DNA of 55,598 nt, from contig CAISTG010000038.1 of assembly GCA_903888345.1 (NCBI GenBank), positions 1-55,598 on the forward strand, given 5' to 3'. The notes beneath the pieces are model-generated. The model was not told the DNA's origin and made no database searches. It worked only from the letters and a program-made list of their open reading frames with translations. The stretch is from Candidatus Buchananbacteria bacterium. Lineage in GTDB: Bacteria; Patescibacteriota; Patescibacteriia; 2-01-FULL-39-33. Positions within the stretch are counted from its first letter, which is position 1. The number at the start of each line of letters is the position of its first letter. The translations under genes were made by a program, and so were the position numbers. Positions 11,018 to 48,496 of the stretch are shown here, piece after piece.

Positions 11018-11683
11018 TTAGGGTTTAGGGGGCGAAGTGGAGTTCAGGGTTTTGGCGAACTCCCTTTGCAGATATTGGCCTTGTATTGGGTACACGGCGG
11101 TAACGCAGGGAATCAGGGGAACATAGTGTACTATTGACTCGGTGCTTTTCCGTTCCTGCTTCTCGTCCGTGCAATCGAATCTAGTTCTCATGTTGTTCAA
11201 GTTGTCGAGGAACTTGATCATCATGGCGTCAACTTCGGCGTTTCTTATTTGCTGATGGTAGAAGTCGTGTCGCTCTTCGTCGCTACTGAAGCGAGGATCA
11301 TCCTTCTTGGGCTTCGTGACAGTTCGAACTAGACGGGCGACTTTCTTGCCAAACAATTTTTTGATGGTCCGGCGGTTGACCACATACGAATCTTCAATCA
11401 CGTCATGCAGGAGAGCAGCAATAACCAGTTTGTAACGGGTTATGCCGAGCTCTTCAATCAAAATCAGTGCTGTCTGGCGACAATGCTCGAAATAGCGTTC
11501 GCCATTGTCTCTAAACTGGTTGCGGTGGCCATATTTGGCTAGGTTGTAAGCCTGGTCAATTAGTTCGAGCTTCTTGGGAGAAACACGCCCGCGTAGAATA
11601 TTGAGGAACCTCTCATGGTTTTGTGGGTTAGCCTCCAATTCATCCATATTGGCGAGGTTTTTCGGATCAAGGTTGTCGGTCAT
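11018..11683 (-). CDS. HD-domain (p)ppGpp hydrolase-like protein (small alarmone hydrolase/Mesh1 type)
   Basis: HRNQFRDNGERYFEH, AALLHDVIED, LVRTVTK, IKFLDNLNNMRT; no synthetase domain. Confidence 0.85.
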   Translation of the reverse strand: MTDNLDPKNLANMDELEANPQNHERFLNILRGRVSPKKLELIDQAYNLAKYGHRNQFRDNGERYFEHCRQTALILIEELGITRYKLVIAALLHDVIEDSYVVNRRTIKKLFGKKVARLVRTVTKPKKDDPRFSSDEERHDFYHQQIRNAEVDAMMIKFLDNLNNMRTRFDCTDEKQERKSTESIVHYVPLIPCVTAVYPIQGQYLQREFAKTLNSTSPPKP

Positions 11684-11733
11684 GATAGCAACTCCTCTTG
11701 GTTCTCGTTGTTAAATGTTCAAGTTAATAGTTG

Positions 11734-11762
11734 ACTATATTATATTATTAGATCTTTGTCAA
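11734..11762 (-). promoter_or_regulatory. sigma70 promoter of the HD gene
   Basis: TTGACA-N17-TATAGT on the minus strand. Confidence 0.7.
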
Positions 11763-11847
11763 ATTGACGCCTAAATTAAGGCAATCTAAGTAACTTTTTT
11801 GCCAATCACTCGTAAAAATGCTATAATAGTATCTAAAATATCCAATC

Positions 11848-13620
11848 ATGAAAACAAATACTAAAAAAACAATTAGTTATTACTGGCAAGCAGCCAAAAA
11901 GCATCCCATCTCCGGTCTTTCCTTGTTTGGCACGATGTTTGTGGCCACAATTTTGGGCTTAGTCACTCCTCTATATTACAAGCAATTATTCAATCAGTTG
12001 GCAGCTGGTGTCGGCAGTACTAACGCGGCGCAAGCAGCGCAAACCGCCTTAATCGCGACTTTGATAATTATTGCCTGTTTGAAATTTGGTGCTTTATTTT
12101 TGCGACGCTTGAATAATTTTTTGTTGAACTATTTCGAATCAAAAGTCATTGCCGAATTGACGGATTTTTGTTTTGCCGAAATGCATAAGCGGTCGTTTAG
12201 TTATTTTAATAATAATTTTGTCGGATCACTGACCAAGAAAATTAAATGGTTTGTCAGTGCTTTTGAGGCTTTGTGCGATCGCGTGATCTGGAATTTCTTG
12301 CCGTTGGTTGTTTCTCTGGTCGTAATAATTTTTGTCTTTTGGTCCATTAATCGTAACTTGGCGATTGGCGTCATCGCTTGGATTGTATTGTTTATGATTG
12401 TTAATTGGGTGTTTACGCGCTACAAGATGAAATTCGATTTGGTTCGCACCGAACTGGAAACTAAAAGCACCGGTTTGCTCGCTGATACTTTAACTAATAA
12501 TGCTAACGTTAAATTGTTTAATGGCTATCAGCGCGAAGTTAAAAAATATGCGAGTGTTACCGAATCTTTACGCAAGGCGCGTCGCTGGACTTGGGATTTG
12601 GGCGCAATCTTCGATTCAATTCAGGGCTTATTTATGGTGGCACTTGAAGTCGGAATTATTGCTTATGCGATTTATTTGTATACCTTAGGTCAATTCACTA
12701 TTGGTGATTTTGTTTTAGTGCAATCTTACGTTGGCAACTTAGTCGACAAGATGTGGGATTTTGGTAATGTCATTCGTTGGACTTATCAGAATTTAGCCGA
12801 TGCTGAAGAAATGACCGTTGTTTTAGAAACGCCGCCGGATATTGTTGATGTACCCAATGCTAAAAAGTTAAAAGCAGGAGAGGGAAGTATTGAGTTTGAT
12901 AAAGTTAATTTCAAATATGGCGATAGTCACGATATCTTAAATAATTTTTCACTGACTATCCCGGCGCGGCAACGCTTGGCGATTATTGGGCCATCGGGTG
13001 CCGGCAAAACAACGGTAATTAAATTATTGTTCCGCATGCATGACCTAACTGGTGGCCGCATTTTAATTGATGGCCAGAACTTATCCGAAGTTACTCAAGA
13101 AAGTTTATGGAATGCCGTTTCGTTGGTACCGCAGGATCCGATTTTGTTTCATCGCACCATCAAAGAAAATATCCAGTATGGCCGGCCAAGTGCGACCGAA
13201 AAGGAAATTATTGCTGCCGCTAAAGCTGCGCACTGTCATGAATTTATTTCTAAATTAGATAAGGGCTACGACACCTTTGTCGGAGAACGTGGCATTAAAT
13301 TGTCGGGTGGTGAACGCCAGCGCGTCGCCATTGCGCGAGCCATTCTAAAGAACGCGCCAATTTTGGTGCTAGATGAGGCGACTTCGTCACTCGATTCGCA
13401 GTCCGAGCGCTTGATTCAGGCCGCTCTTGATCGTTTAATGAAAGACAAGACGGTTATTGTTATCGCGCATCGTTTATCAACGATTCGCAAAATGGATCGC
13501 ATAATTACGGTTGATGCGGGGCGAATCACTGAAGATGGCACGCATGATGAATTATTACATCAAGCCAGTGGCACCTATTCAAAGTTGTGGAACTTACAAG
13601 CAGGAGGATTTATAAAATAA
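11848..13620 (+). CDS. ABC exporter, fused permease/ATPase
   Basis: TM domain plus GPSGAGKT, LSGGERQ and ILVLDEATS. Confidence 0.95.
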   Translation: MKTNTKKTISYYWQAAKKHPISGLSLFGTMFVATILGLVTPLYYKQLFNQLAAGVGSTNAAQAAQTALIATLIIIACLKFGALFLRRLNNFLLNYFESKVIAELTDFCFAEMHKRSFSYFNNNFVGSLTKKIKWFVSAFEALCDRVIWNFLPLVVSLVVIIFVFWSINRNLAIGVIAWIVLFMIVNWVFTRYKMKFDLVRTELETKSTGLLADTLTNNANVKLFNGYQREVKKYASVTESLRKARRWTWDLGAIFDSIQGLFMVALEVGIIAYAIYLYTLGQFTIGDFVLVQSYVGNLVDKMWDFGNVIRWTYQNLADAEEMTVVLETPPDIVDVPNAKKLKAGEGSIEFDKVNFKYGDSHDILNNFSLTIPARQRLAIIGPSGAGKTTVIKLLFRMHDLTGGRILIDGQNLSEVTQESLWNAVSLVPQDPILFHRTIKENIQYGRPSATEKEIIAAAKAAHCHEFISKLDKGYDTFVGERGIKLSGGERQRVAIARAILKNAPILVLDEATSSLDSQSERLIQAALDRLMKDKTVIVIAHRLSTIRKMDRIITVDAGRITEDGTHDELLHQASGTYSKLWNLQAGGFIK

Positions 13621-13622
13621 TT

Positions 13623-14306
13623 ATGAAAATTCTCCTCTCCATCACTACGACTCGCGGCTCTAATTGGCGCGAGAAAATTATAGAAGCCAAAAAGTTAGGC
13701 ATCACTGAAGTGGCATTCTTTTTGACGTGCTTAAACGCGCCGCACCGCCAGGAATTTTATCGCTTAGCTAAAGCAGCCGGTATCAAGAAAGCTCCCTTCG
13801 TTCATTTGCGCTCCGATATGAGTCCAACCGAAATTGATTATTTGATTAAAGAATTCGGTGCTAAATATTTTAATATTCACAGTCAAAAGGACCATCAGCT
13901 GACGCATGATCTGACAAAATATCGGGCGAAGATCTATATGGAAAATAATTTGGATCCGATTGCTGACGAAGCGCGAGACTGGGCTGGAGTCTGCTTAGAT
14001 GTTTCGCATTATGAAGATAAGCGCTTAAGGAAAATTAAAACTTTGCGGCAAGATGTTACTAAAGCGTTGCGTCGCTATAAAGTTGGTGCTTGGCATCTTA
14101 ACGCCATCGCCGCGCAGCCGTTTTATGATAAGAATGGTATCCACGGCTATGATTGTCATCATTTTACTGAGCTAAAGGAATTCAATTATTGTCTGAAATA
14201 CAAAAAATATTTGCCACAACATTATATCGCGCTCGAGCTAGAAAACACTTTGGCGGAGCAATTACAAGCCAAGGCATACCTGACAAAACTCTTGCGAAAT
14301 TCCTAA
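13623..14306 (+). CDS. TIM-barrel protein (xylose isomerase/AP endonuclease-like)
   Basis: FVHL, FNIH, YMENN, VCLDVSH, WHLNA, IALELEN metal-ligand pattern. Confidence 0.55.
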   Translation: MKILLSITTTRGSNWREKIIEAKKLGITEVAFFLTCLNAPHRQEFYRLAKAAGIKKAPFVHLRSDMSPTEIDYLIKEFGAKYFNIHSQKDHQLTHDLTKYRAKIYMENNLDPIADEARDWAGVCLDVSHYEDKRLRKIKTLRQDVTKALRRYKVGAWHLNAIAAQPFYDKNGIHGYDCHHFTELKEFNYCLKYKKYLPQHYIALELENTLAEQLQAKAYLTKLLRNS

Positions 14307-14396
14307 ATTACAACAAAAAAATCTCGGACAGTGTCTGGGATTTTTTAGTTACGTAAAATTTGTGGTATAATTAAGCTGTCAAATTAGGTGATAATT

Positions 14397-14996
14397 ATGA
14401 TTAATAGTTTTTTAACTAAAAAACTCTGGCTCAAGCAAGAAGAGATTCCCATTGTGGTTATCCGCACCTCATTTTTAAATTGGTGGCCATCTTGGTTGCT
14501 GGGCGGAATTTTTCTCTTGGCCTCCTTTTTCTTAATGTTTTATTTGTGGCAACAAAATGTTTGGGGCCCGCTGGTCTTTGGGGCGCTGATTATAGTAGCC
14601 TTAATATTACTGCTTCGAGCTTACTGGCAGCATTATTTTACGGCCTGGATTCTGACCAATTTGCGTTTGGTAGATTTTTATCAGCAAGGCTTTTTTCATC
14701 AAGAAACCAGTGAAGTTATTTATGATAAAATTCTGGAGGTCTATAGTCGCAAAGAAGGGGTGATGAGTGGTTTATTTAATTTGGGTGATGTTTATGTGGA
14801 AATCTCCGGCAGCAAGGCTAAATTGAAGCTAAAGCGAGTGCGCAGTTATGATCGGGCGGTCGCTGAGATTTTATTGCAGCAAGAAGATTACCAAAAAAAC
14901 CTGCTCAATGAGCATGAGCGACGCGCGCAGTATTTATTGCTTAAAATCAAACAAAAAATCGGCGAAAAAGCGTTTAATAATTTAATTGGAGCTTAA
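14397..14996 (+). CDS. membrane protein with bacterial PH-like domain
   Basis: Two TM helices then WILTNLRLVD...QQGFF...LFNLGDVYVE. Confidence 0.7.
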   Translation: MINSFLTKKLWLKQEEIPIVVIRTSFLNWWPSWLLGGIFLLASFFLMFYLWQQNVWGPLVFGALIIVALILLLRAYWQHYFTAWILTNLRLVDFYQQGFFHQETSEVIYDKILEVYSRKEGVMSGLFNLGDVYVEISGSKAKLKLKRVRSYDRAVAEILLQQEDYQKNLLNEHERRAQYLLLKIKQKIGEKAFNNLIGA

Positions 14997-15018
14997 GCGA
15001 TTTTGTGTTATAATTATT

Positions 15019-15471
15019 ATGTCCAAGGAAGGTATAGTCAAAAATAATTCAGCAGTCAAGAGAGTGGCTTTTTTTCTCAGCTTCTTGCTGTTTTTTGTAT
15101 TAATGTTCGCTTTAACCAAGGAATTAGTTAATCGGCGACAAATTGATCGTCAATTAGCAGATTATCAGCTTCGAATTGATAAATTACAATCAGAAAATAG
15201 TTCTTTAGCAACGAAAATTAGCTCTTGGGATCAAAGTGGAGAATTGGAAGCGAGCGCGCGTCAGAAATTAGGTTTAGAAAAGCCTGGTGAACAGACGATT
15301 ATTATTGCGCGTAACAGTTCCGGTGTTGTGAGTCAAGCATTGAAGAGCAATCAGGAGGTAGTTGATTTGGCACCAAAGATCGCCTCGAGTAATTATGAAA
15401 GCAACGTGACGCAGTGGTGGAAATATTTCTTCGAGTCCAACAACGTAAATAATAAAGCACAAAATAATTAA
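15019..15471 (+). CDS. FtsB/DivIC-family septum formation initiator
   Basis: TM plus coiled coil plus EASARQKLGLEKPGE. Confidence 0.8.
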   Translation: MSKEGIVKNNSAVKRVAFFLSFLLFFVLMFALTKELVNRRQIDRQLADYQLRIDKLQSENSSLATKISSWDQSGELEASARQKLGLEKPGEQTIIIARNSSGVVSQALKSNQEVVDLAPKIASSNYESNVTQWWKYFFESNNVNNKAQNN

Positions 15472-15486
15472 CGTACTTTTAGTCAT

Positions 15487-17079
15487 ATGGCACTAAAAAA
15501 ATCTAATCTTTCGCCGGAAGTAAAATCCAGGTTGAGGCAAGCTGTTTTGGGAGAAATCACGCACAAGGCGGCGCCAGCTAAAGCAAAAACTGCAGCCGCT
15601 AAGGTTCCAGTCGTGGCAGCTGCATCGAAGCCGGCTCTAAAAACTCTCAATAAAATTACGGTAGCTACTCCGGTGATTACTCCAATTAAGGCGGTGGTGG
15701 CAGCACCTAAGCCTGCTGTCGTTAAGGCTCAAGTGGTTAAGGCTAAGGATGCGGCACCGATAATTACTGCTAAACCGGAAGTTGCTCCTGCTAAGGCCGT
15801 CAAAAAAACCAAGGCGCATAAAAAGGCGGTTGCTAAAGTCAAAAAAGCCGCATCCCGGACGACTAAGAAAAAAATTAAAGCCGTGCCGGCCATAAAACCA
15901 CCGGTCGCTGTTAAAGCGGTGGCACCGATTGTCGGTGTGCCTAAAGTCGCGCCGGCGAAATCAATTTATTCTAAGCCGCGTCCTGTTGCTAAACGTGATT
16001 GGGAATTGCCTCAGAAGCCGAGTCAGTCATTAGAAGCCCTATTTTCGAAGCCAAAATCGACCATCTCTCCGTCGACTGGATTTTTCCGTAAACCGGCCAG
16101 TACGTCGGTTCGGGAAACTAAAGTTGTTTTTCCTAGCGCTAAGTTAGCAAAGGAAAAAGCTCGTAAACATTGGGGTGGCGCTAGAATTTTAAAGTTTATC
16201 GGATTAATTGTTCTGTTATTAATCGTATTGTTGGCTTTTGATATTTTCGGTCTTTATCAACTAGGTTTCCGCGATACAGTTAGTTACCAGGTTTCCCAAA
16301 ATTTACAGTTGCCAGCTGGCAGTGTTAATGGTAGCTATATTCCCTTAGCCAACTATTTGAGTGACGTTCAGCTGTTGAATTTACCAATGTCCCAGAAACG
16401 CGAAGGCATGTTCGATTATACCGACCAAACAGATATTAAAGCAAAGATATTTTATCGTTTGGCGGCCTTAGATATCATGACTCAGAAATTAACCGGTTAT
16501 GGCAAGTCAGTTACAATGGCTGATATGGATAATCAAGTGAATTTGTTATTACAGCAGACCGGCGGTAAAGATCAGGCGGAAAAAATCGTTGGCAACTTGT
16601 ATGGCCTGAATTTAGCTCAATTCCGTGAAAAGATTCTGGGGCCAATGTTGTTACGAGAGGGTTTACAGCAAGCAATTATTAATGATGAAACAGTGGCAAT
16701 TAATAAGGCGGCTAAAGATCGCGCCGATGAAGTTCTGAAATTAGCGCAAGTATCCAGTACTGATTTTGCTGCGTTAGCACACCAGTATAGTGATGATGAG
16801 GCGAGTATTAATACCGGCGGCGATTTGGGTTGGGTGATTAAGGGCCAATTAGATCAGCAATGGGAAAATTTAATTTTTAGTGGTACCAGTACTAAAGTTT
16901 TGCCACAATTAGTTAAAAGCAATTTTGGTTATCATATCATTAAGATTGAACAGCGAGTGGTTGATCCGAAGACTAATGTCGAAACCGTTAAGCTCCGTCA
17001 TATTTTAGTTAAAGTTGATATCGATAAGTATATTAAAGAATTATTAGACGGTGCGAAATTAATAAAATATATAAAATAA
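15487..17079 (+). CDS. SurA/PrsA-like parvulin peptidyl-prolyl isomerase with long Ala/Lys/Pro-rich N-terminus
   Basis: FAALAHQYSDD..S...GGDLGW and KSNFGYHIIK; TM helix near residue 240. Confidence 0.85.
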   Translation: MALKKSNLSPEVKSRLRQAVLGEITHKAAPAKAKTAAAKVPVVAAASKPALKTLNKITVATPVITPIKAVVAAPKPAVVKAQVVKAKDAAPIITAKPEVAPAKAVKKTKAHKKAVAKVKKAASRTTKKKIKAVPAIKPPVAVKAVAPIVGVPKVAPAKSIYSKPRPVAKRDWELPQKPSQSLEALFSKPKSTISPSTGFFRKPASTSVRETKVVFPSAKLAKEKARKHWGGARILKFIGLIVLLLIVLLAFDIFGLYQLGFRDTVSYQVSQNLQLPAGSVNGSYIPLANYLSDVQLLNLPMSQKREGMFDYTDQTDIKAKIFYRLAALDIMTQKLTGYGKSVTMADMDNQVNLLLQQTGGKDQAEKIVGNLYGLNLAQFREKILGPMLLREGLQQAIINDETVAINKAAKDRADEVLKLAQVSSTDFAALAHQYSDDEASINTGGDLGWVIKGQLDQQWENLIFSGTSTKVLPQLVKSNFGYHIIKIEQRVVDPKTNVETVKLRHILVKVDIDKYIKELLDGAKLIKYIK

Positions 17080-17118
17080 CTAAAAAAGCCGCCAACTTGG
17101 CGACTGCAGAAGTTATTT

Positions 17119-17191
17119 AGCCGACCGTGGGGATCGAACCCACGACCTACGGTTTACGATACCGTCGCTCTACCAACTGAGCTAGGTCGGC
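17119..17191 (-). tRNA. tRNA-Thr(CGT)
   Basis: Cloverleaf gccgacc/ggtcggc; D arm agctcagttggtagagc; anticodon loop aTCGTaa; T loop ttcgatc; CCA not encoded. Confidence 0.92.
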
Positions 17192-17196
17192 AAAAA

Positions 17197-17267
17197 AGCG
17201 GGTAACGAGAATCGAACTCGTGCATCAGCCTTGGGAAGGCCGCATTCTACCACTGAATCATACCCGC
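17197..17267 (-). tRNA. tRNA-Gly(CCC)
   Basis: Cloverleaf gcgggta/tacccgc; anticodon loop ttCCCaa; CCA not encoded. Confidence 0.93.
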
Positions 17268-17310
17268 AAATCAATAAAATTATAACTTATAATTATTAAA
17301 AAAGCAACTC

Positions 17311-18147
17311 ATGAACAATACTTTTTTTCGGTTTAAGGGGGTAAAAACCGTATTCATTTCATTATTTCTTGTTTTATTCTGTGGTTTCCTGTGGTTCACT
17401 GATCTAATTCCAGCTCAGGCGGATGATTGGGCGATTATGGATGTTATTCCAACTGAGCGTTCGACAAAATTGACTTTTGCATCTACTGATAATCAAGTCA
17501 CGTTAACTTTTGCGGCCGGAACTTCGACCATTGTTTCCTATGTTAAGTTCATGTCATATTTAGCGCCCGAGGAAATTGCTGCTAAATATCCTTATACTGA
17601 TATTGTACCAGTGAGCAGTCTTTATTTTCTGGAATTATCGCCCATTGAAGTTGAGTATTCGTTGCAACCAAAGGTGGCAGTCAAGTTTACTAACGATAAT
17701 AAGTTAAAGAGTTTGTATTATTGGAATGAAGCGCAACAGCAATTTATTAAACTAGACACTGTTCGTGATACCAAAAAAAATATTTTGACTTTTGTTGCGC
17801 CTAAGGTCAAAGATCTGACTTTTGCTTTGTTTGAAGAGCCAATACAGTTGGGAACTGCCTCCTGGTATGTGCATCCAAGATACAAAAAGGAGTTAATGGC
17901 AGCGTCGACTGATTTTTCTTTCGGCTCGAAAGTAAAAGTAACCAATTTAGCTAATAATAAATCGGTGGTAGTGACAATTAAGGATTACGGTCCAGTTAAG
18001 AGTATCCATCCTGATCGAGTGATTGACCTCGGCAAAGAAGCCTTTAAAAAAATTGCCTCGACTGGCGCCGGCGTGATTAAGGTTAAAGTAGAGCCGTATC
18101 TAATTGAAACGAGCACCGCGACCACGACTAGTATTATAAAAAAATAA
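17311..18147 (+). CDS. RlpA-family (DPBB) lytic transglycosylase-like protein
   Basis: GTASWY...FGSKVKVTNLANNKSVVVTIKDYGP...RVIDLGKEAFKKIA...GVIKVKVE. Confidence 0.85.
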   Translation: MNNTFFRFKGVKTVFISLFLVLFCGFLWFTDLIPAQADDWAIMDVIPTERSTKLTFASTDNQVTLTFAAGTSTIVSYVKFMSYLAPEEIAAKYPYTDIVPVSSLYFLELSPIEVEYSLQPKVAVKFTNDNKLKSLYYWNEAQQQFIKLDTVRDTKKNILTFVAPKVKDLTFALFEEPIQLGTASWYVHPRYKKELMAASTDFSFGSKVKVTNLANNKSVVVTIKDYGPVKSIHPDRVIDLGKEAFKKIASTGAGVIKVKVEPYLIETSTATTTSIIKK

Positions 18148-18220
18148 GTTCAGCGAAATATTATCTGATTACCTCGCTTGCAATTAGTAATTTTTAATTC
18201 GTCACTCTTAATTTAACCCT

Positions 18221-18901
18221 GTGATCCATTTAGAAAAAGTTTCTAAAAATTTTCAGCCTAATGTTAATGCACTCTCTGATATTACCTTGCATATTGATGC
18301 GGGGGAGTTTGTTTCGATTGTTGGTCAGTCCGGATCAGGCAAGACGACAATTGTGCGCTTACTTATTTCGGAAATCCAGCCAGATGCGGGCGAAGTGGAG
18401 GTCGGCGGTTGGAATATTACCAAAATTAAAAAAGTTCAAGTACCGTTACTGCGCCGCCAAATTGGAGTTGTATTTCAGGATTTTAAATTATTACCAAAGA
18501 AAACTGTTTTTGAGAATGTGGCTTTTGCCTTGCAGGTTTCCGGAGCGCCACGAGCTAGAATTCAGCAAGTAGTGCCTCAAGTCTTAAATATTGTCGATTT
18601 AAGCGATAAACTCCATCGCTATCCGCAGGAACTCTCTGGCGGTGAACGCCAACGCGTCGCCATTGCCCGCGCCTTGATTCATCGGCCGAAAGTGTTATTG
18701 GCGGATGAGCCGACGGGTAATCTAGACGCCTTAAATACCAAAGACATTATCGAGTTATTATTGAAAATCAATGAATTCGGCACTACTGTCGTCATGGTTA
18801 CTCATAATAAAGAAATCGTTAATTCGCTGAAGCGACGTGTTATCACCCTCGATCGGGGACTGATGGCCGGTGATCAGCGTGTTGGTAAATACGTAATTTA
18901 G
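18221..18901 (+). CDS. ftsE: cell division ATP-binding protein FtsE
   Basis: GQSGSGKT, LRRQIGVVFQDFKLL, ADEPTGNLD; upstream of ftsX. Confidence 0.95.
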   Translation: MIHLEKVSKNFQPNVNALSDITLHIDAGEFVSIVGQSGSGKTTIVRLLISEIQPDAGEVEVGGWNITKIKKVQVPLLRRQIGVVFQDFKLLPKKTVFENVAFALQVSGAPRARIQQVVPQVLNIVDLSDKLHRYPQELSGGERQRVAIARALIHRPKVLLADEPTGNLDALNTKDIIELLLKINEFGTTVVMVTHNKEIVNSLKRRVITLDRGLMAGDQRVGKYVI

Positions 18902-18904
18902 CTT

Positions 18905-19822
18905 ATGTTCTTACATGCTCTCTCCCGTGGAATAATTTTTGCCCTGCAGTCATTTTGGCGCAACGTTTGGTTGTCGATTGCCACGATTTTTGTGATCTTC
19001 TTGACTTTAGTATCGGTTAACTTTTTGATTGCGGTTAATGTTATTGCTGATTCAGCTATAAATGTCGTCAAGGAGCGCATCGATGTTTCTATTTATCTGA
19101 AACCAGATATTCAAGAAAGTAAAATTGCTGAGCTTAAAACGCGACTAGAGTCTGATTCGCAGGTAAAAAATGTTGTCTATCGTTCGCCAGCAGATAATTT
19201 GGCAGACTTTAAGGCCAAACATGTTAATGATGAAAAAATTAAAGAAACGCTCGACTCACTGAATGGTAATCCGATGGGTGCCACCCTTATTATCAAGGCC
19301 AAGAATCTTAAGGATTATCCGGTCATTTTACGAACTCTAGAAGATCCGATACTGAATGAGATTATCGAAGAAAAAAATTACGACGACAATCAATTAGTTA
19401 TCGACCGTATCAACCTGATTGCCAGTAATATCAAGCGCGTCATCTTGGCTATTTCCATTATTTTTATTATTATTTCAATTTTGATCGTTTTTAATACTGT
19501 GCGTATTGCGATTTTTACACATCAGAACGAAATTGCGATTATGAAGTTGGTCGGCGCGAGTAATTGGTTTATTCGTTTTCCATTTGTTTTCGAAAGTATT
19601 TTGGCGGGGCTCTTCGCTTGTATCTTAGCGATGTTTTTTATCTATCCGCTACTGTCTTTTACGCAAGGTTATATTGGCGGTTTCTTTGGGGGTGCTGATT
19701 TCAATATCATCAGTTATTTCAATGCTAATTTTTTCTTAATTTGGGGTGCGCAGCTGCTCGGCATTATTGTCATTAATGCTATTTCTTCTTCAATTGCCCT
19801 ATCGAAGTATTTGAAGGTCTAG
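18905..19822 (+). CDS. ftsX: cell division permease FtsX
   Basis: NTVRIAIF...EIAIMKLVGASNWFIRFPF..E. Confidence 0.93.
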   Translation: MFLHALSRGIIFALQSFWRNVWLSIATIFVIFLTLVSVNFLIAVNVIADSAINVVKERIDVSIYLKPDIQESKIAELKTRLESDSQVKNVVYRSPADNLADFKAKHVNDEKIKETLDSLNGNPMGATLIIKAKNLKDYPVILRTLEDPILNEIIEEKNYDDNQLVIDRINLIASNIKRVILAISIIFIIISILIVFNTVRIAIFTHQNEIAIMKLVGASNWFIRFPFVFESILAGLFACILAMFFIYPLLSFTQGYIGGFFGGADFNIISYFNANFFLIWGAQLLGIIVINAISSSIALSKYLKV

Positions 19823-19842: not shown

Positions 19843-19876
19843 TTGACAGAATAGCCTTAATTGGGCTATTCTTTTT
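19843..19876 (+). promoter_or_regulatory. overlapping ftsX terminator and promoter of the zinc-ribbon gene
   Basis: TTGACA-N18-TATTCT whose spacer forms the hairpin agaatagcc/ggctattct followed by a T tract. Confidence 0.6.
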
Positions 19877-19921
19877 AAATCAACGAACTTTTGGCAATTA
19901 TAACAATAAGGAGTAGGTGCC

Positions 19922-36465: not shown

Positions 36466-36471
36466 AATAAA

Positions 36472-40560: not shown

Positions 40561-40562
40561 AA

Positions 40563-40991
40563 TTATTTTTGACTTATTAAAATTGTCACTGGTAGACTAC
40601 TGGAAGTATTAATCGTCGGAAGGTGGTAAAAGACGGTAACAGTAATTTTTTTGAGCCCCAGATCAGCAGTCGAGGTATTCAGGTTACTGTCAACGGTTGT
40701 GACTACAGTTTGTCGCTCGTAATTATAAAAGGGGTTTTGAGTGCTGGTGGCTAAACGATGACGTGCTTCAATCGTGCTGGTGCCGATACTTTCATAGCCT
40801 AACGAAAATAGCTCCTCGATTTTTGCCTGCGCCAAATCAGCAGCAACTGTTTCTTGCTCGGCGTTTTTGGAAATTTTTAAGGCTAAAGGAAAAAGTTTAA
40901 TGATACCCAAAATACCGATCGTTAAAACGGCGACCGCTAAGACGGCCTCGATCATGGTGATACCGCGTTTGTTATTAATCGATTTTAACAT
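40563..40991 (-). CDS. PilV-like minor pilin
   Basis: GITMIEAVLA...LAQAKIEEL. Confidence 0.8.
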   Translation of the reverse strand: MLKSINNKRGITMIEAVLAVAVLTIGILGIIKLFPLALKISKNAEQETVAADLAQAKIEELFSLGYESIGTSTIEARHRLATSTQNPFYNYERQTVVTTVDSNLNTSTADLGLKKITVTVFYHLPTINTSSSLPVTILISQK

Positions 40992-41424
40992 AGCCCGATG
41001 GTTTAATTTCTATGATTGCCGTATGATTGAGGGGATTAATGAGGGTAATACTGCCAATAGAGAGTGCTGCCCCTGTGGCATTGAAAGTGACGGTACTGCT
41101 GGTTAGACCGCTAATATTTTGCAGACGAATATTATTTTTTATGGTTACGGTTTTAATGGCCGTGCTGGTAGCTGTATTTTTGATTTGATAAGAGTTGGAG
41201 TTGACGTTAAAGCTGACGCTGTAGTTGACTTGCGTAGTGACGGCCAGTTGCTGGGCATAACGCAAATCAGAGGTTAAATCACGGGTAGCCGAACTAAGAT
41301 TGTAGTTTTTGATGGCACCATCAAAGAATGGCACACAAATAATGGCGATGATGGCTAAAATGCCAATCGCAATTAATAATTCTATTAAAGAAAAGCCCGC
41401 AGGCGTAGTTTTGATAACTAACAT
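40975..41424 (-). CDS. FimT/GspH-like minor pilin
   Basis: GFSLIELLI...LRYAQQLA...TFNATG. Confidence 0.82.
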   Translation of the reverse strand: MLVIKTTPAGFSLIELLIAIGILAIIAIICVPFFDGAIKNYNLSSATRDLTSDLRYAQQLAVTTQVNYSVSFNVNSNSYQIKNTATSTAIKTVTIKNNIRLQNISGLTSSTVTFNATGAALSIGSITLINPLNHTAIIEIKPSGYVKID

Positions 41425-42494
41425 TAAAAAGCTTGAGTCAAAGAATAAATTGGCAAGATAACGGCGATGGCCAGGCCACCGACAGCGGCGCCCATCATCA
41501 ACATCAGAATTGGTTCGATGATAACTGGCAGATTTTCCATGGTTTGTTCAACTTCTTCTTGATAAAAATCAGCCATATTTTTTAGAACAACGTCCAAGGC
41601 TCCAGTTTCTTCACCGACTGAAATCATCTGAATAACAATGGGCGACATAATATTAGAATATTCTTTAAAAATATCGGCGATCTTTTTTCCTTTTTTAACT
41701 TTTTCCGCTGCTTCTAATAAGGCTCGTTTATACAGTTCGTTGTTTAAGGTATTGGCGGTAATCTTCAGGGCCTCTGGAATGGCGATATCGGTTTGAATGA
41801 GATTACTTAAATTAAGTGCGAGTCTAGCAATATTAACCTTTTTAATAATGTCTCCAGCAATCGGAGTTTTAAGCAGTATTTGATGCCAGATGGGGCGACC
41901 GAAGCTAGTGCGTGTCCAACGTAAGAACAGAAAAATAAAGATAATCAGAGCCGGAAAAAAGATTAAGCCGTCGTTTTGGGCGAAATTAGAAATGCCGATT
42001 AAGATTTTGGTTGGCAATGGTAAATCGACATTCAAATCTTTAAACATTGAAGTGATATTGGGCAGCACAAAGAAAATTACTAAAGCCCCAATGCCCAACA
42101 TCGCGCAAACGATGATGACCGGGTAAGTCATGGCATTACGGATTTTAGTTTTTAAGGTGTGATCTTTTTTGGATTGAATATATAAGCCATTAAGAACGCC
42201 TTCAAGACTGCCAGACGCTTCGCCGGCAGCGATCATGTTAATGAAAATTTCACCGAAATCCTTAGCATAGGGCGTCAAGGCTTCGGCAAAAGATTTGCCC
42301 GCTGTAATTTTTTCTTTGGTGTCGAGTAGGATGTTTTTTAATTTTGGGCTTTTGGTTTGATCGGCAATAGTATTGAGGGCCTCACCCAGTGGTAATCCCG
42401 CTCGAATCATAACGCCCAAATTTTGCAGTAAGAAGATTTTAGCCGTGGCGGGAATTTTTTGGAGATTAACAAACCAGAATTCAATTTTAGTCAT
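41424..42494 (-). CDS. pilC: type IV pilus platform protein PilC/GspF
   Basis: Two GspF repeats; AGEASGSLE and VGEETGALD. Confidence 0.92.
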   Translation of the reverse strand: MTKIEFWFVNLQKIPATAKIFLLQNLGVMIRAGLPLGEALNTIADQTKSPKLKNILLDTKEKITAGKSFAEALTPYAKDFGEIFINMIAAGEASGSLEGVLNGLYIQSKKDHTLKTKIRNAMTYPVIIVCAMLGIGALVIFFVLPNITSMFKDLNVDLPLPTKILIGISNFAQNDGLIFFPALIIFIFLFLRWTRTSFGRPIWHQILLKTPIAGDIIKKVNIARLALNLSNLIQTDIAIPEALKITANTLNNELYKRALLEAAEKVKKGKKIADIFKEYSNIMSPIVIQMISVGEETGALDVVLKNMADFYQEEVEQTMENLPVIIEPILMLMMGAAVGGLAIAVILPIYSLTQAF

Positions 42495-42502
42495 AATAAT
42501 TA

Positions 42503-44239
42503 CTATTCTTTAGTGACTCTTAGTACTTCTTCAATCGAAGTAATGCCGCTTTTGGCCTTAATGAAACCATCTTGCAAGATCGTGATCATGCCGTTTTTGA
42601 CGGCGGCTTTTTGTAATTCGGCGCGGGAGGCTTTGGTTAAGATCATTTGGCTGATTTCATCATTGATTTCAATGATTTCATAGATTCCAAGACGTCCCTT
42701 GTAACCACTGTTATTGCATTGTTGGCAGCCACGGCCGCGATAAAATAAAACGTTCTTGATTTTTTGTTTTTTGACTAAGAAGCCGAGTTGACTGAGATTT
42801 TTTTCAAGTTCAGGAATGTTGAATTCTTTTTCTAGTTCTTTATAAGTTTTGGCGTCCAGATTATAACTCTCGATGCAGTTGCGGCAGATTTTTCGGACTA
42901 AACGTTGAGCAATAATAATGTTGATAGTTGAGGAAATTAAAAAGGTTGGTACGCCCATATCGATGAAACGGGGGATAGCAGTAACGGCGTCATTAGTATG
43001 CAACGTTGAGAGCACTAAATGCCCCGTCATAGCGGCGTTAATAGCGATGTCCGCAGTTTCATTGTCACGAATTTCGCCCACCAGAATAATGTTCGGATCT
43101 TGGCGTAAAAAGGCGCGGAGTGCTCCAGCGAAAGTAAAGCCGATTTTTGGTTGTACTTGGCATTGATTGACGCCAGGCATTTTATATTCGATCGGATCCT
43201 CAATTGTGGAGATGTTGACCTCTGGTTTGTTAAGTATTTGTAACATGGTGTATAAGGTCGTGGTTTTACCGCTACCGGTTGGACCAGTCACCAGCACCAT
43301 GCCGTGTGGTTTGCTAATATTACGTTTGACGATTTCTAAGACTTGCGGTTGAAAACCCAGTTGCTCTAAGCTCATTTGTTGGGCTTGATCTGGCAAGAGA
43401 CGCATGACGACTTTTTCACCATCAAAAGTGGGAATAATAGACACACGGAACGACACTTGATAGTCAGAAGTTTTGATTTTGAAACGGCCATCTTGGGGTA
43501 AACGGTGTTCGTCTAATTTTAGATTGGAAAGAATCTTAATTCTCGCAATAATACCAGCATGGGCGGTTTTTGGTAGTGTCATTACTTTGCGTAAAATACC
43601 ATCAATACGATAACGCACGGACACCTCTTGATCGGTCGGCTCAATATGAATATCGGAAGCCTTTTCTAAAATTGCGTATTCGAGGAGGGTGTCAACGACG
43701 CGAACTACTGGCAAGTCTTGGGCCAAAGTTTTTAAATTTTCTTCTTTGGTGATGTTTTCGAGGCCGTTATTATTACTATTTTCTTTTTCACCAAGAATTT
43801 CTGCTGACAAACCCTTATGGTATTGTTTAATGATTTCACTAATATTTTCTGGGCTGGTTAAATGTAAACTAATCTCTAAATTAGTTTTTTTGCCTAAGTA
43901 GTCGAAGAGTTCGATATTCGAAATATCTAAGGTCGCAATTTTTAGTTCTTTGTCATCTTTATCAAAAGCGATTGTTTGGTGTGCCTTGGCAGTAATTTCG
44001 GGAATAATAAATAAGATATCCTTGCGAATAATGCGACTTTTAAGGTCAATATAGGGCAGTTTATAATATTTAGCTGCTGCCTCATAAATAACTTGGGAAG
44101 AAATAATTTTCTTTTCCAATAGAAAATCTTCGAGTTTTTTGCCGGCGGTGCGTGCCTTGGCCAGATAATCTTTTAGTTCTTTTTCTTTTAAGATGTTATT
44201 GGTCAGCAAAATTTCCTCAAAATCTTTTTGACTAAGCAT
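42503..44239 (-). CDS. pilB: type IV pilus extension ATPase PilB/GspE
   Basis: ASDIHIEP, GPTGSGKTT, LRQDPNIILVGEIRD, TGHLVLSTLHTN, tetra-Cys. Confidence 0.95.
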   Translation of the reverse strand: MLSQKDFEEILLTNNILKEKELKDYLAKARTAGKKLEDFLLEKKIISSQVIYEAAAKYYKLPYIDLKSRIIRKDILFIIPEITAKAHQTIAFDKDDKELKIATLDISNIELFDYLGKKTNLEISLHLTSPENISEIIKQYHKGLSAEILGEKENSNNNGLENITKEENLKTLAQDLPVVRVVDTLLEYAILEKASDIHIEPTDQEVSVRYRIDGILRKVMTLPKTAHAGIIARIKILSNLKLDEHRLPQDGRFKIKTSDYQVSFRVSIIPTFDGEKVVMRLLPDQAQQMSLEQLGFQPQVLEIVKRNISKPHGMVLVTGPTGSGKTTTLYTMLQILNKPEVNISTIEDPIEYKMPGVNQCQVQPKIGFTFAGALRAFLRQDPNIILVGEIRDNETADIAINAAMTGHLVLSTLHTNDAVTAIPRFIDMGVPTFLISSTINIIIAQRLVRKICRNCIESYNLDAKTYKELEKEFNIPELEKNLSQLGFLVKKQKIKNVLFYRGRGCQQCNNSGYKGRLGIYEIIEINDEISQMILTKASRAELQKAAVKNGMITILQDGFIKAKSGITSIEEVLRVTKE

Positions 44240-44363: not shown

Positions 44364-44393
44364 AAAAACCACTAAGAGATTATCTTAGTGGTT
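44364..44393 (-). terminator. intrinsic terminator
   Basis: aaccactaaga/tcttagtggtt with a minus-strand U tract. Confidence 0.8.
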
Positions 44394-44408
44394 CGAAAGT
44401 TCAAATTG

Positions 44409-45263
44409 TTAAAAAATGTATCTGATGCCTTGCTTGGCATAGCCTACAAAGTCACTGACGTCATGCTTATCAAAGTTATCATCATAATGTTTGAGTAGCA
44501 TTTTCTTTTTTATTTCCGGTGGCAACTGTTTCAAGTCAGTTAGCGGTGCATGGACGGCACCGGGGAAAAACTGAACGTCATGGAACATCATCTCAGAGCG
44601 ATCGGCATACAGTTCAATCAACTCCCGATCGAATTTAGTGTCACCAGAATAGAAGACACGGTCATCGATCAAAAGTCCATAGCTTAAAAAGGCCGCTTCC
44701 CAATTTTTGGCTTGCTCGGGAATATGGACCGTGCGGAAGATTTCCAAATGAATGCCTTCATAATCAAGCTCAAAAGTTTCTCGCGGTTGATGCGTTTTCC
44801 AGCCGGGATGAATAATATCAAAGAGATCAGTAACCATCATGCTATGGCCATCACTAATCGCTTCTTCATTCCATTCCAGCCCGCCGCGCAGCGTATTATC
44901 CCAGAGGACCCGCTGATATTCTCGACAAATAATCATTTTGATTTTCGGATGATTGAGTAGTGGCCGGCCGATGTAACGATTTTGTAAAGCCAGGCACTCA
45001 AAACCGCCGACATGATCGGCATGAGAGTGGGTGGGCAAAACGCAACGGATATCTGTTGGCTTTAAACGTGTAGTTTTGGCAATAGCCATTTTACCATCGG
45101 CGCCGAAATCTACCAATAAGTGTGCCTGACCTTTGATAATCAGCGCGCACGTATTAAAATGGCGGGTCGCGTTGGCCGATCCGGTACCAATAAAGAATAG
45201 TTCTAATTCTCCGTTGTTCGTTAAAGAGAGCGTATCTTTTTTCAGTAACCGTTTGGTTTTCAT
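44409..45263 (-). CDS. MBL-fold metallo-hydrolase (Apyc1/RNase Z-like phosphodiesterase)
   Basis: FIGTGSA, THSHADHVGG, LW..TLRGGL, FYSGDT.FD, FHDVQ....VHA, LKHY; SD ggagg. Confidence 0.8.
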   Translation of the reverse strand: MKTKRLLKKDTLSLTNNGELELFFIGTGSANATRHFNTCALIIKGQAHLLVDFGADGKMAIAKTTRLKPTDIRCVLPTHSHADHVGGFECLALQNRYIGRPLLNHPKIKMIICREYQRVLWDNTLRGGLEWNEEAISDGHSMMVTDLFDIIHPGWKTHQPRETFELDYEGIHLEIFRTVHIPEQAKNWEAAFLSYGLLIDDRVFYSGDTKFDRELIELYADRSEMMFHDVQFFPGAVHAPLTDLKQLPPEIKKKMLLKHYDDNFDKHDVSDFVGYAKQGIRYIF

Positions 45264-45365
45264 GGTCAGCCTCCGTTTGACTAGTTGTTGTAAAGTTCTT
45301 AATTAACTTACTAAACCATGACGGCGCCGGAAAATAAATTCCGACGCCGAACATAGATTGCTAAG

Positions 45366-46640: not shown

Positions 46641-46677
46641 AAAACCGGTCAGACAAGTTATTAGCTTGGCTGACCGG
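46641..46677 (-). terminator. intrinsic terminator of the lipoprotein gene
   Basis: ccggtcag/ctgaccgg with a minus-strand U tract. Confidence 0.7.
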
Positions 46678-46698
46678 GCAGGGGTTTAAAAGGTACTT

Positions 46699-48306
46699 TT
46701 AGACGGAGGCTTGGAAGGCTTGCTTGCCTTCCGAGTTGGCAACAAGCGGCATGAGCTCACCGTTGAGGGTGATAATCACAGCGTCGTTGGGCACAAATCC
46801 ATCGAGTGATACGTTGCCATTGGTGACAACGGTACAGCGCAAGATTCGGCTAATATTTGACCGAAACTGCGTGACCGTCCCAGAGGCGATACCCTGCGAG
46901 GAGACGTCCCAAAGTTCGCGTTCAATCCAAACCGCCGAAGGCTGATACAGTTCCAGCCCGATATGACCGCTGGCCGGGGCGTTCGTGGCAGCGAGTGTCA
47001 GGTAGGTCCCATTCCAAACGAGGTCGATCCGGAGCTTCTTGGTATCGGCATTGGTCGCGACGTGCACCGTACGGGTAATCGAGCTGGCGTTGCCGGCACG
47101 ATCAACTGCATGGTACGTCAAGACATAGTTCCCAACGACGGTCACATTAACGTTGCCAGTTACGGTAACGTTCACAACACCGTCGACGGCATCGTAAGCG
47201 GTGGCGCCCGGGTCAACCCAGACTCCGCCGACGATCAAATTGACCGTAGCCGAACCATTCAGCGTTATCACGGGAGGCGTAACGTCACCAACTGGCGGCG
47301 TCACGGCCCTAAACTTGGCGACGACCTTGACGGTTTCGCTGTTCATCTGCACCGAGGCGCTGACACTGGTAGTACCCAGTTCATCGTTCACTGTCCAATC
47401 CACGAATTCGAATCCGGCATTGGCATTGGCCTGAAGGCTAACGTCTTTGCCGTACTCATACTCGACGAGGGAGGGGTTAACGGTGACGCTGCCAGCTCCC
47501 GGAGGGGAGATGGAAACGATCAGCTTTGACATGTTCGACTTAAAAACGGCGATCAGAAGCACGTGGCCATCCATCTTGACAGATGCGTTGGCATCCAACC
47601 AAGGCGATTCGTCCGTGTTAACGGTCCAGTGGTCAAAGATGAAGCCTTCGTTGGCCACAGCCTGGACATCGACAGTAACACCGGCAGCGTAGAGATCCTG
47701 ATTCGGACTCACGCTAATTCCGCCGGCATTGGCAGGCGAAACCATGGTCGAGAGATGATACAGACCGGTTGGCGGCGGCGTTATGCCGTAGTGCCCGGGA
47801 CCGTAAAAAAGGGTCATGGCACTGCGACCATTACCACCAATAACGGTTAGAATGATCCGGTCGACAGCGTCGCCCGGCTTCAGACCGATGTTGAAGGTAT
47901 CATCGTTCAGGTTCTCGCCGATCATGGTGGCAATCGTGCCACCGATAGCGGCTGCAGCTGTTCCTCCCAGCAAGATCACGCCAGTGCAAGTCAGACACTT
48001 TTCGGCGTCTGCACTCTTTGCGGTGGCCTTGGTGGCGGGGAAGATGTTAATCGGTCTGGACACAGTCTCGCCCACCAGGAAAACTTCTCCCGTGGCTCGA
48101 CCAAACCCGTTGCCTCCCTGATAGGTCATGGAGACCTCAGCTCGGGCATCGACGACCGAACCCAAAGGGTTCAGGGTTGTCTGGACCGGATAGCCGGCCT
48201 CATTCAGGGTGTTCTGCATCACGGTCAGGTTGGAAGTGTCGGGGCAGCCTGTCAGGCATACTCCCAGTGACATCAATACGACGGCCAGTAACAGAGTCTT
48301 CTTCAT
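46699..48306 (-). CDS. lipoprotein with two InlB-B/Flg_new-like repeats and a DUF5011-type Ig-like domain
   Basis: LTGC lipobox; GFxFxxWT repeats; DVTPPVITLNG...DPGATAYD.VDG...G.Y.LTY.A.D.AGN; visibly GC-richer than flanks. Confidence 0.8.
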   Translation of the reverse strand: MKKTLLLAVVLMSLGVCLTGCPDTSNLTVMQNTLNEAGYPVQTTLNPLGSVVDARAEVSMTYQGGNGFGRATGEVFLVGETVSRPINIFPATKATAKSADAEKCLTCTGVILLGGTAAAAIGGTIATMIGENLNDDTFNIGLKPGDAVDRIILTVIGGNGRSAMTLFYGPGHYGITPPPTGLYHLSTMVSPANAGGISVSPNQDLYAAGVTVDVQAVANEGFIFDHWTVNTDESPWLDANASVKMDGHVLLIAVFKSNMSKLIVSISPPGAGSVTVNPSLVEYEYGKDVSLQANANAGFEFVDWTVNDELGTTSVSASVQMNSETVKVVAKFRAVTPPVGDVTPPVITLNGSATVNLIVGGVWVDPGATAYDAVDGVVNVTVTGNVNVTVVGNYVLTYHAVDRAGNASSITRTVHVATNADTKKLRIDLVWNGTYLTLAATNAPASGHIGLELYQPSAVWIERELWDVSSQGIASGTVTQFRSNISRILRCTVVTNGNVSLDGFVPNDAVIITLNGELMPLVANSEGKQAFQASV

Positions 48307-48467
48307 GATCTTTCATCTCCTGTTTCGTTTTTTTGCCTCGAGTCTGGCAACCATATAGCTGCCAAAACTCATATCCATTGAGTTGACAGCTACAGGCCGT
48401 CAGAGCTCGTTTTTCATGGCTTTCAAGGTACAATAAGCTAAGACCACAAAGTCTTACTTAATAGACT

Positions 48468-48496
48468 ATTATATCATGCCTATCAAAAAATGTCAA
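48468..48496 (-). promoter_or_regulatory. sigma70 promoter of the lipoprotein gene
   Basis: TTGACA-N17-TATAAT with extended TG. Confidence 0.8.

Follow-up and report, generated by a model that had tools for sequence, protein, structure and literature searches.

The genes of a Candidatus Buchananbacteria genome of the phylum Patescibacteria (G000; 1.387 Mb in 66 contigs, 98.5% complete, estimated contamination 2.1%) fall into two classes that differ in the sequences leading up to their starts. Both classes are interleaved on its 55.6-kb contig C38, the whole of which (55,598 nucleotides) is called the window here. Class I genes lack a Shine-Dalgarno sequence (SD) and form a backbone that is conserved in relatives; class II genes carry a strong SD, follow a sequence grammar of their own and belong to the accessory part of the genome. 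Our explanation, which we hold to be probable, is that class II is an accessory gene pool internal to the phylum whose members are built as expression cassettes. A sequence-only reading of the window had proposed two translation-initiation regimes, with the SD-bearing genes as a dispersed class of self-contained units. The first proposal is supported by the bimodality of SD strength, by SD rates in genes binned by GC content and by start choice made without the SD, and the second by a promoter and leader grammar common to the SD-bearing genes.

Genes were called with a finder of our own (a dicodon model, greedy non-overlapping selection and an iterative start model with an SD term), which returned 1272 genes; the promoter and terminator scans, energy thresholds and gene starts are equally our own simple implementations. 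SD strength was scored by pairing positions -22 to -1 of each gene to the 15-nt tail of the 16S rRNA (dG in kcal/mol). The 3' end of that rRNA, which the sequence-only reading had singled out for inspection, is canonical, GGATCACCTCCTTTCT, and thus carries an intact anti-SD. Genes with dG ≤ -8 and an exact match of at least 4 nt were classed as SD+, giving 224 SD+, 252 intermediate and 796 SD- genes. Their strengths are bimodal (two-component mixture, BIC, the Bayesian information criterion, 6518 versus 7024; Ashman D 2.8), with the antimode between -5 and -4 kcal/mol; the internal-ATG null has a single mode, and the SD- genes sit at its level. When real starts are compared with alternative starts of the same open reading frames (ORFs), the log-odds are U-shaped (+0.45, -0.83, -0.89, -0.03, +0.73): real starts are enriched at no pairing and at strong pairing, and intermediate pairing is depleted. 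The spacer of the SD+ genes has its mode at 7 nt, and 187 of the 224 lie at 6-9 nt. Unimodal strength, or transfers without a shared motif, had been named in advance as outcomes that would speak against two regimes; what we found are two modes and, as described below, a shared leader motif.

It is scarcely credible that bin contamination, chimeric assembly or start-codon choice created the SD+ class. The assembly is indeed in 66 contigs with some contamination, and the start model contains an SD term. Yet the bimodality is unchanged when starts are chosen by coding score alone, and SD+ and SD- genes alternate along all large contigs, the window included, which rules out bin contamination. The pattern also recurs outside G000, on a single contig of 958 kb, and two relatives (G002 and G006) repeat the U-shaped log-odds. 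Within G000, SD+ genes form their longest runs on contigs C28 (about 33-46 kb) and C39. One of these runs groups enzymes of NAD and ADP-ribose chemistry (CN-hydrolase, histidine phosphatase, NUDIX, ADP-ribosylglycohydrolase and isochorismatase-like proteins), and the other, which could be a module for transfer or secretion, holds VirB11-like ATPases and cREC_REC along with small proteins.

The two classes also differ in composition. GC is 0.460 in SD+ and 0.410 in SD- genes (Mann-Whitney p 2e-42), and GC at third codon positions is 0.479 and 0.391, respectively; SD+ genes score lower on the codon model, and their codon usage is atypical. With genes divided at a GC of 0.44, a cut picked after the bins were seen, dG ≤ -8 is reached by 40.3% of the 382 genes at or above it (9.9% of internal ATGs, 7.7% of shuffled leaders) and by 9.2% of the 890 genes below it, against a null of 8.7%.

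What precedes the start differs just as clearly. Leaders of SD- genes are A/T-rich, with G below 10% from -20 to -1 and T at -1 in 72% of genes; T at -1 is found in 71-79% of SD- genes in three relatives (G002, G005 and G006) and may represent a Kozak-like context for SD-independent starts. We scanned genes with an upstream gap of at least 60 nt for TTGACA-N16-18-TAnnnT with up to three mismatches. Matches occur in 228 of 440 SD- genes (23% after shuffling), and their -10 box lies less than 40 nt from the ATG in 135 and within 9 nt in 30 of the 228, which suggests short or absent leaders. SD+ genes yield 87 matches among 141 genes (13% after shuffling), with an exact -35 in 73 of the 87, in keeping with the TTGACA promoters that had been described for the window. 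In these matches the -10 box is degenerate, and its distance from the ATG is 40-150 nt, with 85 of the 87 at 40 nt or more. Between promoter and SD, the SD+ leaders carry a CA-rich tract at -25 to -14: CAAC is present in 116 of 223 SD+ against 80 of 795 SD- leaders, CAACC in 61 against 17 and ACAACC in 28 against 3. At position -1, SD+ leaders favour C. The composite pattern TTGACA-N50-80-RGGAG-N5-9-ATG occurs 86 times in G000 and once in the reversed control, the top count among 201 genomes of the phylum.

At the other end of the unit, terminator-like hairpins follow 113 of 224 SD+ and 241 of 784 SD- genes (reverse-complement control 21-26%), so that the terminators attributed to the accessory units also hold up genome-wide. 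The further claim that many such units oppose their neighbours is true in direction and modest in size, 51% of SD+ against 37% of SD- genes opposing at least one neighbour. Sequestration of the SD by a CCTT in the leader was considered and rejected (unpaired probability of the SD 0.508 in real and 0.492 in shuffled leaders, p 0.14; minimum free energy equal to that of shuffles).

The backbone is conserved where the accessory genes are not. In the same-genus loci examined (genomes G001-G006 and G008, reached with a 20-kb DNA query and as syntenic loci), backbone genes are retained and SD-less over a range of gene GC from about 0.28 to 0.52. The relatives used here and below are not independent samples. 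In 800 kb of G002, two thirds of that genome, reciprocal best hits were found for 46 of 236 SD+ and 340 of 801 SD- genes, classed for this purpose by dG alone (Fisher p 5e-11). Median ortholog identity is 45% for SD+ and 65% for SD- genes, and the SD state is kept in 29 of the 46 SD+ and 294 of the 340 SD- pairs. Pfam matches at 1e-5 were obtained for 36 of 150 SD+ and 118 of 150 randomly drawn SD- proteins, a gap that arises partly because SD+ proteins are shorter. Presence and absence of the window units across 30 relatives, a comparison that had been proposed for them, is patchy. The stand-alone HD_4 gene has orthologs in five of eight genus relatives; CoaB occurs in three of the eight genus genomes and in none of 22 further relatives; a 211-aa protein of the cluster at 29326..31741 is found in two of eight genus relatives; and no ortholog of the metallo-beta-lactamase (MBL) gene better than E 2.7e-5 was found among the 30. 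The slots themselves are variable: between FtsX and WecA, genomes G001-G006 have no called ORF matching the Zn-ribbon, CoaB or CoaC genes of the window, and the slot between CysS and UvrA holds different small SD+ genes in G001, G002, G003, G005 and G006 and is empty in G004. Contigs assembled from four DNA runs of one study over positions 10500-30499, at a depth of about 1-8, contain no joint that skips a cassette, a result uninformative on presence or absence at strain level. Among the RNA runs checked for positions 17000-26999, none was listed as containing the locus.

If the SD+ genes were neutral leftovers of recent transfer from SD-using donors, with SDs and leaders functionless here, one would understand their higher GC and atypical codon usage, their patchy distribution and the fact that most are orphans. 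We nonetheless consider this very unlikely. One position-specific promoter and leader grammar extends over about 140 independent unit heads, the spacer is sharply peaked at 7 nt, intermediate pairing strengths are depleted and orthologs that are about 45% identical keep their SD state. Furthermore, HD_4 and CoaB, the two genes tested, find their nearest homologs, 42-49% identical, in other Patescibacteria. For HD_4, the five closest (L101-L105) all have a strong SD, most of them together with a TTGACA promoter or a boxA-like element, which argues that gene, promoter, leader and SD move as one within the phylum. The possibility that the sequence-only reading had set against its own proposal, very recent transfer from diverse donors, is not supported, given these homologs and the 29 of 46 conserved SD states. 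Constant GC across a shared accessory pool also finds no support, as SD+ GC follows host GC (0.327 in G005 and 0.484 in G006).

Another suggestion was that the SD+ genes are expressed in or delivered to a host cell, or derive from phage genes for host takeover. Some of the cargo is related to nucleotides or NAD and does resemble phage families (thymidylate kinase-like, ThyA-like, T4-type RNA ligase, GP30.3, ADP-ribosylglycohydrolase and an Apyc1-like MBL protein). PHROG matches, however, are rarer in SD+ proteins (31 of 150) than in SD- proteins (61 of 150) and include no capsid, portal or terminase, and the SDs match the organism's own 16S tail. Signals for secretion or host-type expression were not seen, although no search aimed at them was made. 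The phage part of the suggestion is thus not supported, delivery to a host finds no support and we give this origin a negligible probability.

The explanation we prefer, a phylum-internal pool of expression cassettes, is as follows. Class I, about 63% of the genes, is the conserved syntenic backbone, with predicted -10-dominated promoters 5-40 nt before the ATG; where it has leaders at all, they are short, rich in A and U, end in T at -1 and lack an SD, and its initiation would accordingly be SD-independent. Class II, clearly about 18% of the genes and up to a third with the intermediates, is the flexible accessory set. A class II head consists of an exact TTGACA -35, a weak -10, a leader of 40-80 nt with a boxA-like 5' end, a CA-rich (CAACC) tract, a canonical SD and a spacer of about 7 nt, often with a terminator of its own behind the gene. 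Such portable promoter-leader-SD-ORF-terminator units would fill variable slots between backbone genes, drawn most likely from a pool internal to the phylum, and their expression module would work wherever it is inserted. The backbone, for its part, may have moved to SD-independent initiation, as in Bacteroidia, and a further, Nus-dependent control may act through the boxA-like element. The sequences show both classes, with their grammar, their conservation in relatives and the accessory standing of class II; use of the SDs, activity of the promoters and the reason for the split are inferred from them.

Several observations weigh against so clean a division. The 252 intermediate genes give the classes soft borders, and some core genes (DnaB, RpoA, PNPase, S2 and S15) are SD+, which means that the split is not purely one of core against accessory. 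An SD+ class is nearly absent from the smallest relative, the 0.7-Mb G005 (5.5%, with a null of 7.7%), and the GC offset of SD+ genes is inconstant, falling from +5.0 points in G000 to +3.6 in G005, +3.2 in G002 and a non-significant +1.4 in G006. No integrase or other transfer machinery was found tied to SD+ units, and no mobility gene occurs among the 55 ORFs of the window. Finally, our gene finder is imperfect on small atypical ORFs and sometimes chooses the wrong strand, as at 25652-25900 and 31376-31639.

The 5' end of many class II leaders carries a further signal. De novo motif discovery in SD+ leaders returned G-W-W-C-Y-T-T-R-M-M-A, with frequencies of.98 for G1,.96 for C4,.98 for T6,.85 for T7 and.82 for A11. 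These columns are in register with G1, C4, T6, T7 and A11 of the boxA consensus GYTCTTTAANA, so that the label boxA-like given earlier to the leaders of the window is defensible; positions 2, 3 and 5 deviate from this consensus, which is gamma-proteobacterial. Passages of a study of boxA describe C4 as critical, the boxA of suhB as repressing translation even 100 nt from the SD, and between 0 and 7 boxA targets per surveyed genome (Baniulyte et al., bioRxiv 10.1101/091223). Co-occurrence of motif and SD, also proposed earlier as a test, is pronounced: a position weight matrix (PWM) score of at least 12 bits is reached in 51 SD+, 19 intermediate and 3 SD- leaders (about 3 expected by chance). 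Since the PWM was trained on leaders of G000, we applied it to the independent genome of the same genus, G002, where it matches 33 times in leaders of 167 SD+ and 6 times in leaders of 502 SD- genes. Leaders read by eye mostly have the motif beginning 8-14 nt downstream of the -10 box, at what should be the 5' end of the mRNA. Motif followed by SD occurs 50 times in G000 against 6 in a motif-reversed control and is also in excess in one other family (42 against 10, 51 against 13 and 29 against 9). A phylum-wide pattern was rejected: the excess over the control is only about 1-2 fold in most other Patescibacteria, and the combination is hence not universal in the phylum.

The boxA reading of this element is plausible but unproven, and from its sequence one can imagine a Nus-factor regulon, in which a true boxA bound by NusB and NusE would assemble an antitermination-type complex at accessory units and either permit read-through or, as at suhB of Escherichia coli, restrain translation. 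The register of the motif and its place at the predicted 5' end, the excess of motif-then-SD over its control and the suhB precedent are all consistent with such a regulon. So are the presence of NusB in G000 (126.6 bits; a NusG domain was seen as well) and similar elements in the 16S-23S spacer of G000 (GATCTTTGACAAT, 11.6 bits) and in the 16S leader of G002 (GTATTTTGACAAC); the 16S leader of G000 is not in the assembly. The G002 element, however, has T at the critical C4, the motif strays from the consensus at three positions, about three quarters of SD+ leaders fall short of 12 bits, the PWM is weakly enriched genome-wide (170 against 107 in a shuffled genome) and the enrichment elsewhere in the phylum is slight. 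The published maximum of seven targets per surveyed genome, as given in the passages cited above, is also hard to square with it. Moreover, the Rho RNA-binding domain (PF07497) was not found in the 98.5%-complete G000, which would leave a classical anti-Rho role with no target. Taken together, these points make a Nus-factor regulon doubtful. A small SD+ ORF with a boxA-like element lies directly after the 16S gene of G002 and before three tRNAs (L053, 15562-16000).

A second possible layer of control concerns the ribosome itself. Outside the window, at C7:6827-7072 (+), G000 encodes an 81-aa basic protein with a GTG start that is bS21, the product of rpsU: a profile of 21 orthologs gave 28 PDB matches, of which 27 are S21 (best E 1.2e-8), while Pfam missed the gene on six-frame DNA and was sub-threshold on the single sequence. 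Its alignment shows a near-invariant Tyr in the C-terminal EYLKKIGK; in the Bacteroidia-type system, Tyr54 of bS21 is one of the platform residues that, along with others in bS18 and bS6, form the pocket for the 3' tail. The SD of this gene is the third strongest of all 1272, AGAAAG-N-GAGGTGA, which forms 13 bp with the 16S tail around one bulge (dG -18.4). It is listed among the conserved SD+ orthologs together with DnaB, RpoA and PNPase. In relatives, dG is ≤ -12 in 27 of 29 bS21 orthologs, that of G005 included, and ≤ -16 in 25 of 29, and in 12 other families of the phylum it is ≤ -13 in 23 of 29 (loci L164-L192 and L194-L222). These energies come from our own duplex calculation with a 15-nt tail, which differs from the published method behind the -13 threshold mentioned next. 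According to passages of the Bacteroidota literature (PMC9976891; PMC7797042; PMC13000453), an rpsU SD below -13 kcal/mol marks bS21 autoregulation in Flavobacterium, the anti-SD is sequestered by bS21, bS18 and bS6, and Flavobacterium ribosomes depleted of bS21 translate strong-SD reporters better. In these passages Patescibacteria go unmentioned, and a full-text literature search, supplements excluded, found no published description of an extended rpsU SD in this phylum.

By analogy, partial masking of the anti-SD is conceivable in G000; the SD+ cassettes might then form a block that depends on bS21-free ribosomes for translation. Under such a specialised-ribosome regulon, most 30S subunits would bear bS21, keep the anti-SD hidden and work on the SD-less backbone; those without bS21 would prefer SD mRNAs, and the output of about 220 SD+ accessory genes would vary jointly with bS21 occupancy. 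Such a regulon is compatible with the cassette explanation, and we regard it as possible, if rather unlikely. The ortholog-profile identification of bS21, the rank of its SD, the conservation of the extended SD in relatives and in other families, even in G005, which otherwise lacks an SD+ class, and the Flavobacterium precedent argue for it. However, anti-SD masking is known from Bacteroidia alone; the Flavobacterium response is limited to extended SDs, whereas most class II SDs lie at -8 to -13; and Flavobacteriales have virtually no SD genes other than rpsU. Indeed, about 220 ordinary SDs with a tight spacer suggest that the anti-SD is generally available, which argues against masking. The fullest form of the idea, a ribosome-level switch in which bS21-bearing 30S serve the SD-less backbone, bS21-free 30S serve some 220 SD-led, boxA-tagged cassettes, and bS21 is autoregulated through its 13-bp SD, is in our judgement unlikely. 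If true, it would extend the rpsU-SD circuit of Bacteroidota into a genome-wide, two-tier expression of horizontally circulating genes. The two start architectures hint at ribosome-level control over the accessory genome.

Within the window, Pfam on the 55 ORFs confirmed the gene names proposed earlier and yielded backbone content typical of Patescibacteria, including DUF5667. The surrounding backbone genes (ABC exporter, FtsEX, WecA, CysS, the UvrA-like gene, IscU/S, the pil operon and others), several of which the sequence-only reading had listed as SD-less, do lack an SD: the 45 nt upstream of each ORF are A/T-rich, usually with T just before the ATG, and have no purine run. The first block, 11848..19822 (+), comprises the ABC exporter, DivIC, a peptidyl-prolyl isomerase (PPIase), a DPBB protein, FtsE and FtsX, with TATAAT boxes near the ATG. 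It is syntenic and SD-less in the same-genus loci wherever the fetched stretch covers it. Between its PPIase and DPBB genes the (-) strand encodes two tRNAs (17119-17267), and two tRNAs were all that an Rfam scan of the window found. WecA-like, DUF192 and CysS genes follow at 22280..25293 (+), where 6 nt separate the end of a TATAAT from the WecA ATG and the WecA mRNA may therefore be leaderless. The UvrA-like gene occupies 26702..29320 (+), and the last SD-less stretch, 31852..44239, holds a C39-like peptidase, Rrf2, IscU, NifU and IscS on the (+) strand and the type IV pilus operon pilB to pilO on the (-) strand.

Between these blocks sit the SD+ units, for which clear SDs had been claimed; 12 of their 14 ORFs have one 5-9 nt before the start, the remaining two being 26333, where it is weak, and 30617, a doubtful ORF with none. 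That each unit has its own promoter stands for those with TTGACA or TTGACT heads; it does not stand for CoaC or for the internal genes of either cluster, all of them intra-operon, nor for the MBL unit, which has no recognisable -35. The stand-alone RelA/SpoT-type HD hydrolase HD_4 (11018..11683, (-), GC 0.48; Pfam PF13328, 1.5e-17) is a single-gene unit. Its promoter and leader span 11697..11762, with the -35 TTGACA at 11762..11757, the -10 TATAGT at 11739..11734, a weak boxA-like GAACATTTAACAAC at about 11720..11707, then CAAC and the SD GAGGAG near 11697; a terminator-like hairpin follows the gene at 10986..11009 (-). The Zn-ribbon unit (19843..20291, (+)) has TTGACA at 19843..19848, TATTCT at 19867..19872, the SD AAGGAG at 19908, the ORF at 19922-20245 and a terminator-like hairpin at 20272-20291. 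Among the syntenic loci examined, only G008 has an ortholog with SD. The terminator-like hairpin that follows ftsX (19849-19871) falls exactly between the -35 and -10 of this promoter, so that the backbone operon would end and the cassette begin on the same DNA.

The CoaB-CoaC operon with a small SD+ ORF occupies 20313..22075 (+). At its head are TTGACA at 20313, TATATT at 20336, the boxA-like GAACTTTGATA at 20352..20362 (11.1 bits), CAACC at 20383 and the SD AGGAG at 20388. CoaB (20402-21256) is followed by CoaC (21253-21852, SD GGAGG at 21241) and by a previously unlisted 67-aa ORF (21872-22075) with its own SD, AAAGGAA, which is probably a member of the unit. Further on, a four-gene SD+ operon of small Pfam-less proteins lies at 25299..26710 (-). 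It consists of 26607-26347 (SD AAGGGAG), 26333-26133, 25900-25652 (GGAGG) and 25629-25330 (AAGGAG), headed by TTGACT at about 26701, the boxA-like GCACTTTAACA at 26657..26647 (16.5 bits) and CAAC at 26632, and closed by a terminator-like hairpin at 25299-25318. The cluster at 29326..31741 (-), with a GC of 0.48-0.51, has two promoters, TTGACA at 31741..31736 with TATGAT at 31718..31713 and TTGACA at 30308..30303 with TACAAT at 30285..30280, and terminator-like hairpins at 30368-30396 and 29326-29353. Its genes are 31639-31376 (AGGAG), 31359-30724 (AAAGGAGG), the doubtful ORF 30617-30420 and a coiled-coil gene, 30164-29388, whose SD (AAGGAG) precedes an ATG at 30164 and not the one at 30212. 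The unit of the MBL-fold, Apyc1-like hydrolase (44367..45298, (-); ORF 45263-44409; Pfam PF23023, 1.7e-28) carries the boxA-like GAACTTTACAA at 45298..45288 (13.8 bits), CAAC at 45290, the SD GGAGG at 45274 and a terminator-like hairpin at 44367-44393. Finally, the unit of a surface protein with immunoglobulin (Ig) repeats (46645..48431, (-), GC 0.56; ORF 48306-46699) has the boxA-like GTACCTTGAAA at 48431..48421 (12.0 bits), the SD AGGAG at 48321 and a terminator-like hairpin at 46645-46677.

Two other features of the sequence deserve mention. At 10740-10960 the window holds four to five tandem copies of a GC-rich unit of about 45 nt, each with an inverted repeat (GGATTCC...GGAATG); contig depth there is 10-40x that of the flanks in four metagenome runs, some contigs skip 92 nt and the region looks like a repeat common to other organisms or other loci. 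Elsewhere, G000 holds, within its 1.39 Mb, open frames of 8030, 7843, 6307 and 4728 codons.

Why SD-poor lineages retain the anti-SD is a question to which the two classes offer a concrete and testable answer. To our knowledge, SD-independent initiation with a retained anti-SD is mechanistically understood in Bacteroidia only, where rpsU is the sole known client of the anti-SD. The genome described here, from another phylum, carries the rpsU signature too and adds to it a large, sharply bounded SD-led class that matches the flexible genome and has a promoter type and leader element of its own. A full-text literature search, supplements excluded, found no published description of a within-genome SD split tied to accessory genes. 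For ultra-small symbionts it is suggested that accessory genes travel as complete expression cassettes and are perhaps controlled as a block. On the practical side, gene callers with one start model will mis-call starts in such genomes, and the motif grammar could flag accessory genes directly from sequence.

How the split relates to known systems can be said in some detail. Like genomic islands and the flexible genome in general, class II is of atypical composition, patchy, placed in variable slots between conserved genes and made up mostly of orphans; unlike islands, its units comprise one to five genes, each with the same promoter and leader grammar, their nearest homologs (for the two genes tested) lie within the phylum, and no integrases or repeats are linked to them. 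GeneMarkS-2 reportedly models leaderless, non-SD and SD genes within one genome, and as in such mixed-initiation genomes several start-site models coexist here; the classes of G000, however, are split by promoter, leader element, GC, conservation and synteny as well. The leader element shares with boxA and Nus elements, as far as the cited passages describe them (Baniulyte et al., bioRxiv 10.1101/091223), a length of 11 nt, the registered G1, C4, T6, T7 and A11, a position in the 5' leader upstream of the SD at variable distance and a genome that encodes NusB. It differs in its tens of copies, against 0-7 per genome, in its degeneracy at positions 2, 3 and 5 and in a genome where Rho was not found, and its binding is putative. 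Parcubacteria without an anti-SD motif (Tsurumaki 2022, PMC9297842) are likewise Patescibacteria in which SD-independent initiation must dominate, whereas G000 keeps its anti-SD and apparently uses it for a defined gene class. The closest parallel is the SD-blind system of Bacteroidia, to judge from passages of the work on it (Jha 2021, PMC7797042; McNutt 2023, PMC9976891; PMC13000453): there, too, the anti-SD is canonical, most genes are SD-less with A-rich leaders, and a lineage-conserved bS21 gene has an exceptionally long SD (here about -18). Apart from the phylum, the differences are that sequestration of the anti-SD is established there and hypothetical here, that some 220 more genes here have an ordinary strong SD, of which Flavobacteriales have virtually none, and that the SD-less genes have T at -1 and, in many cases, very short leaders.

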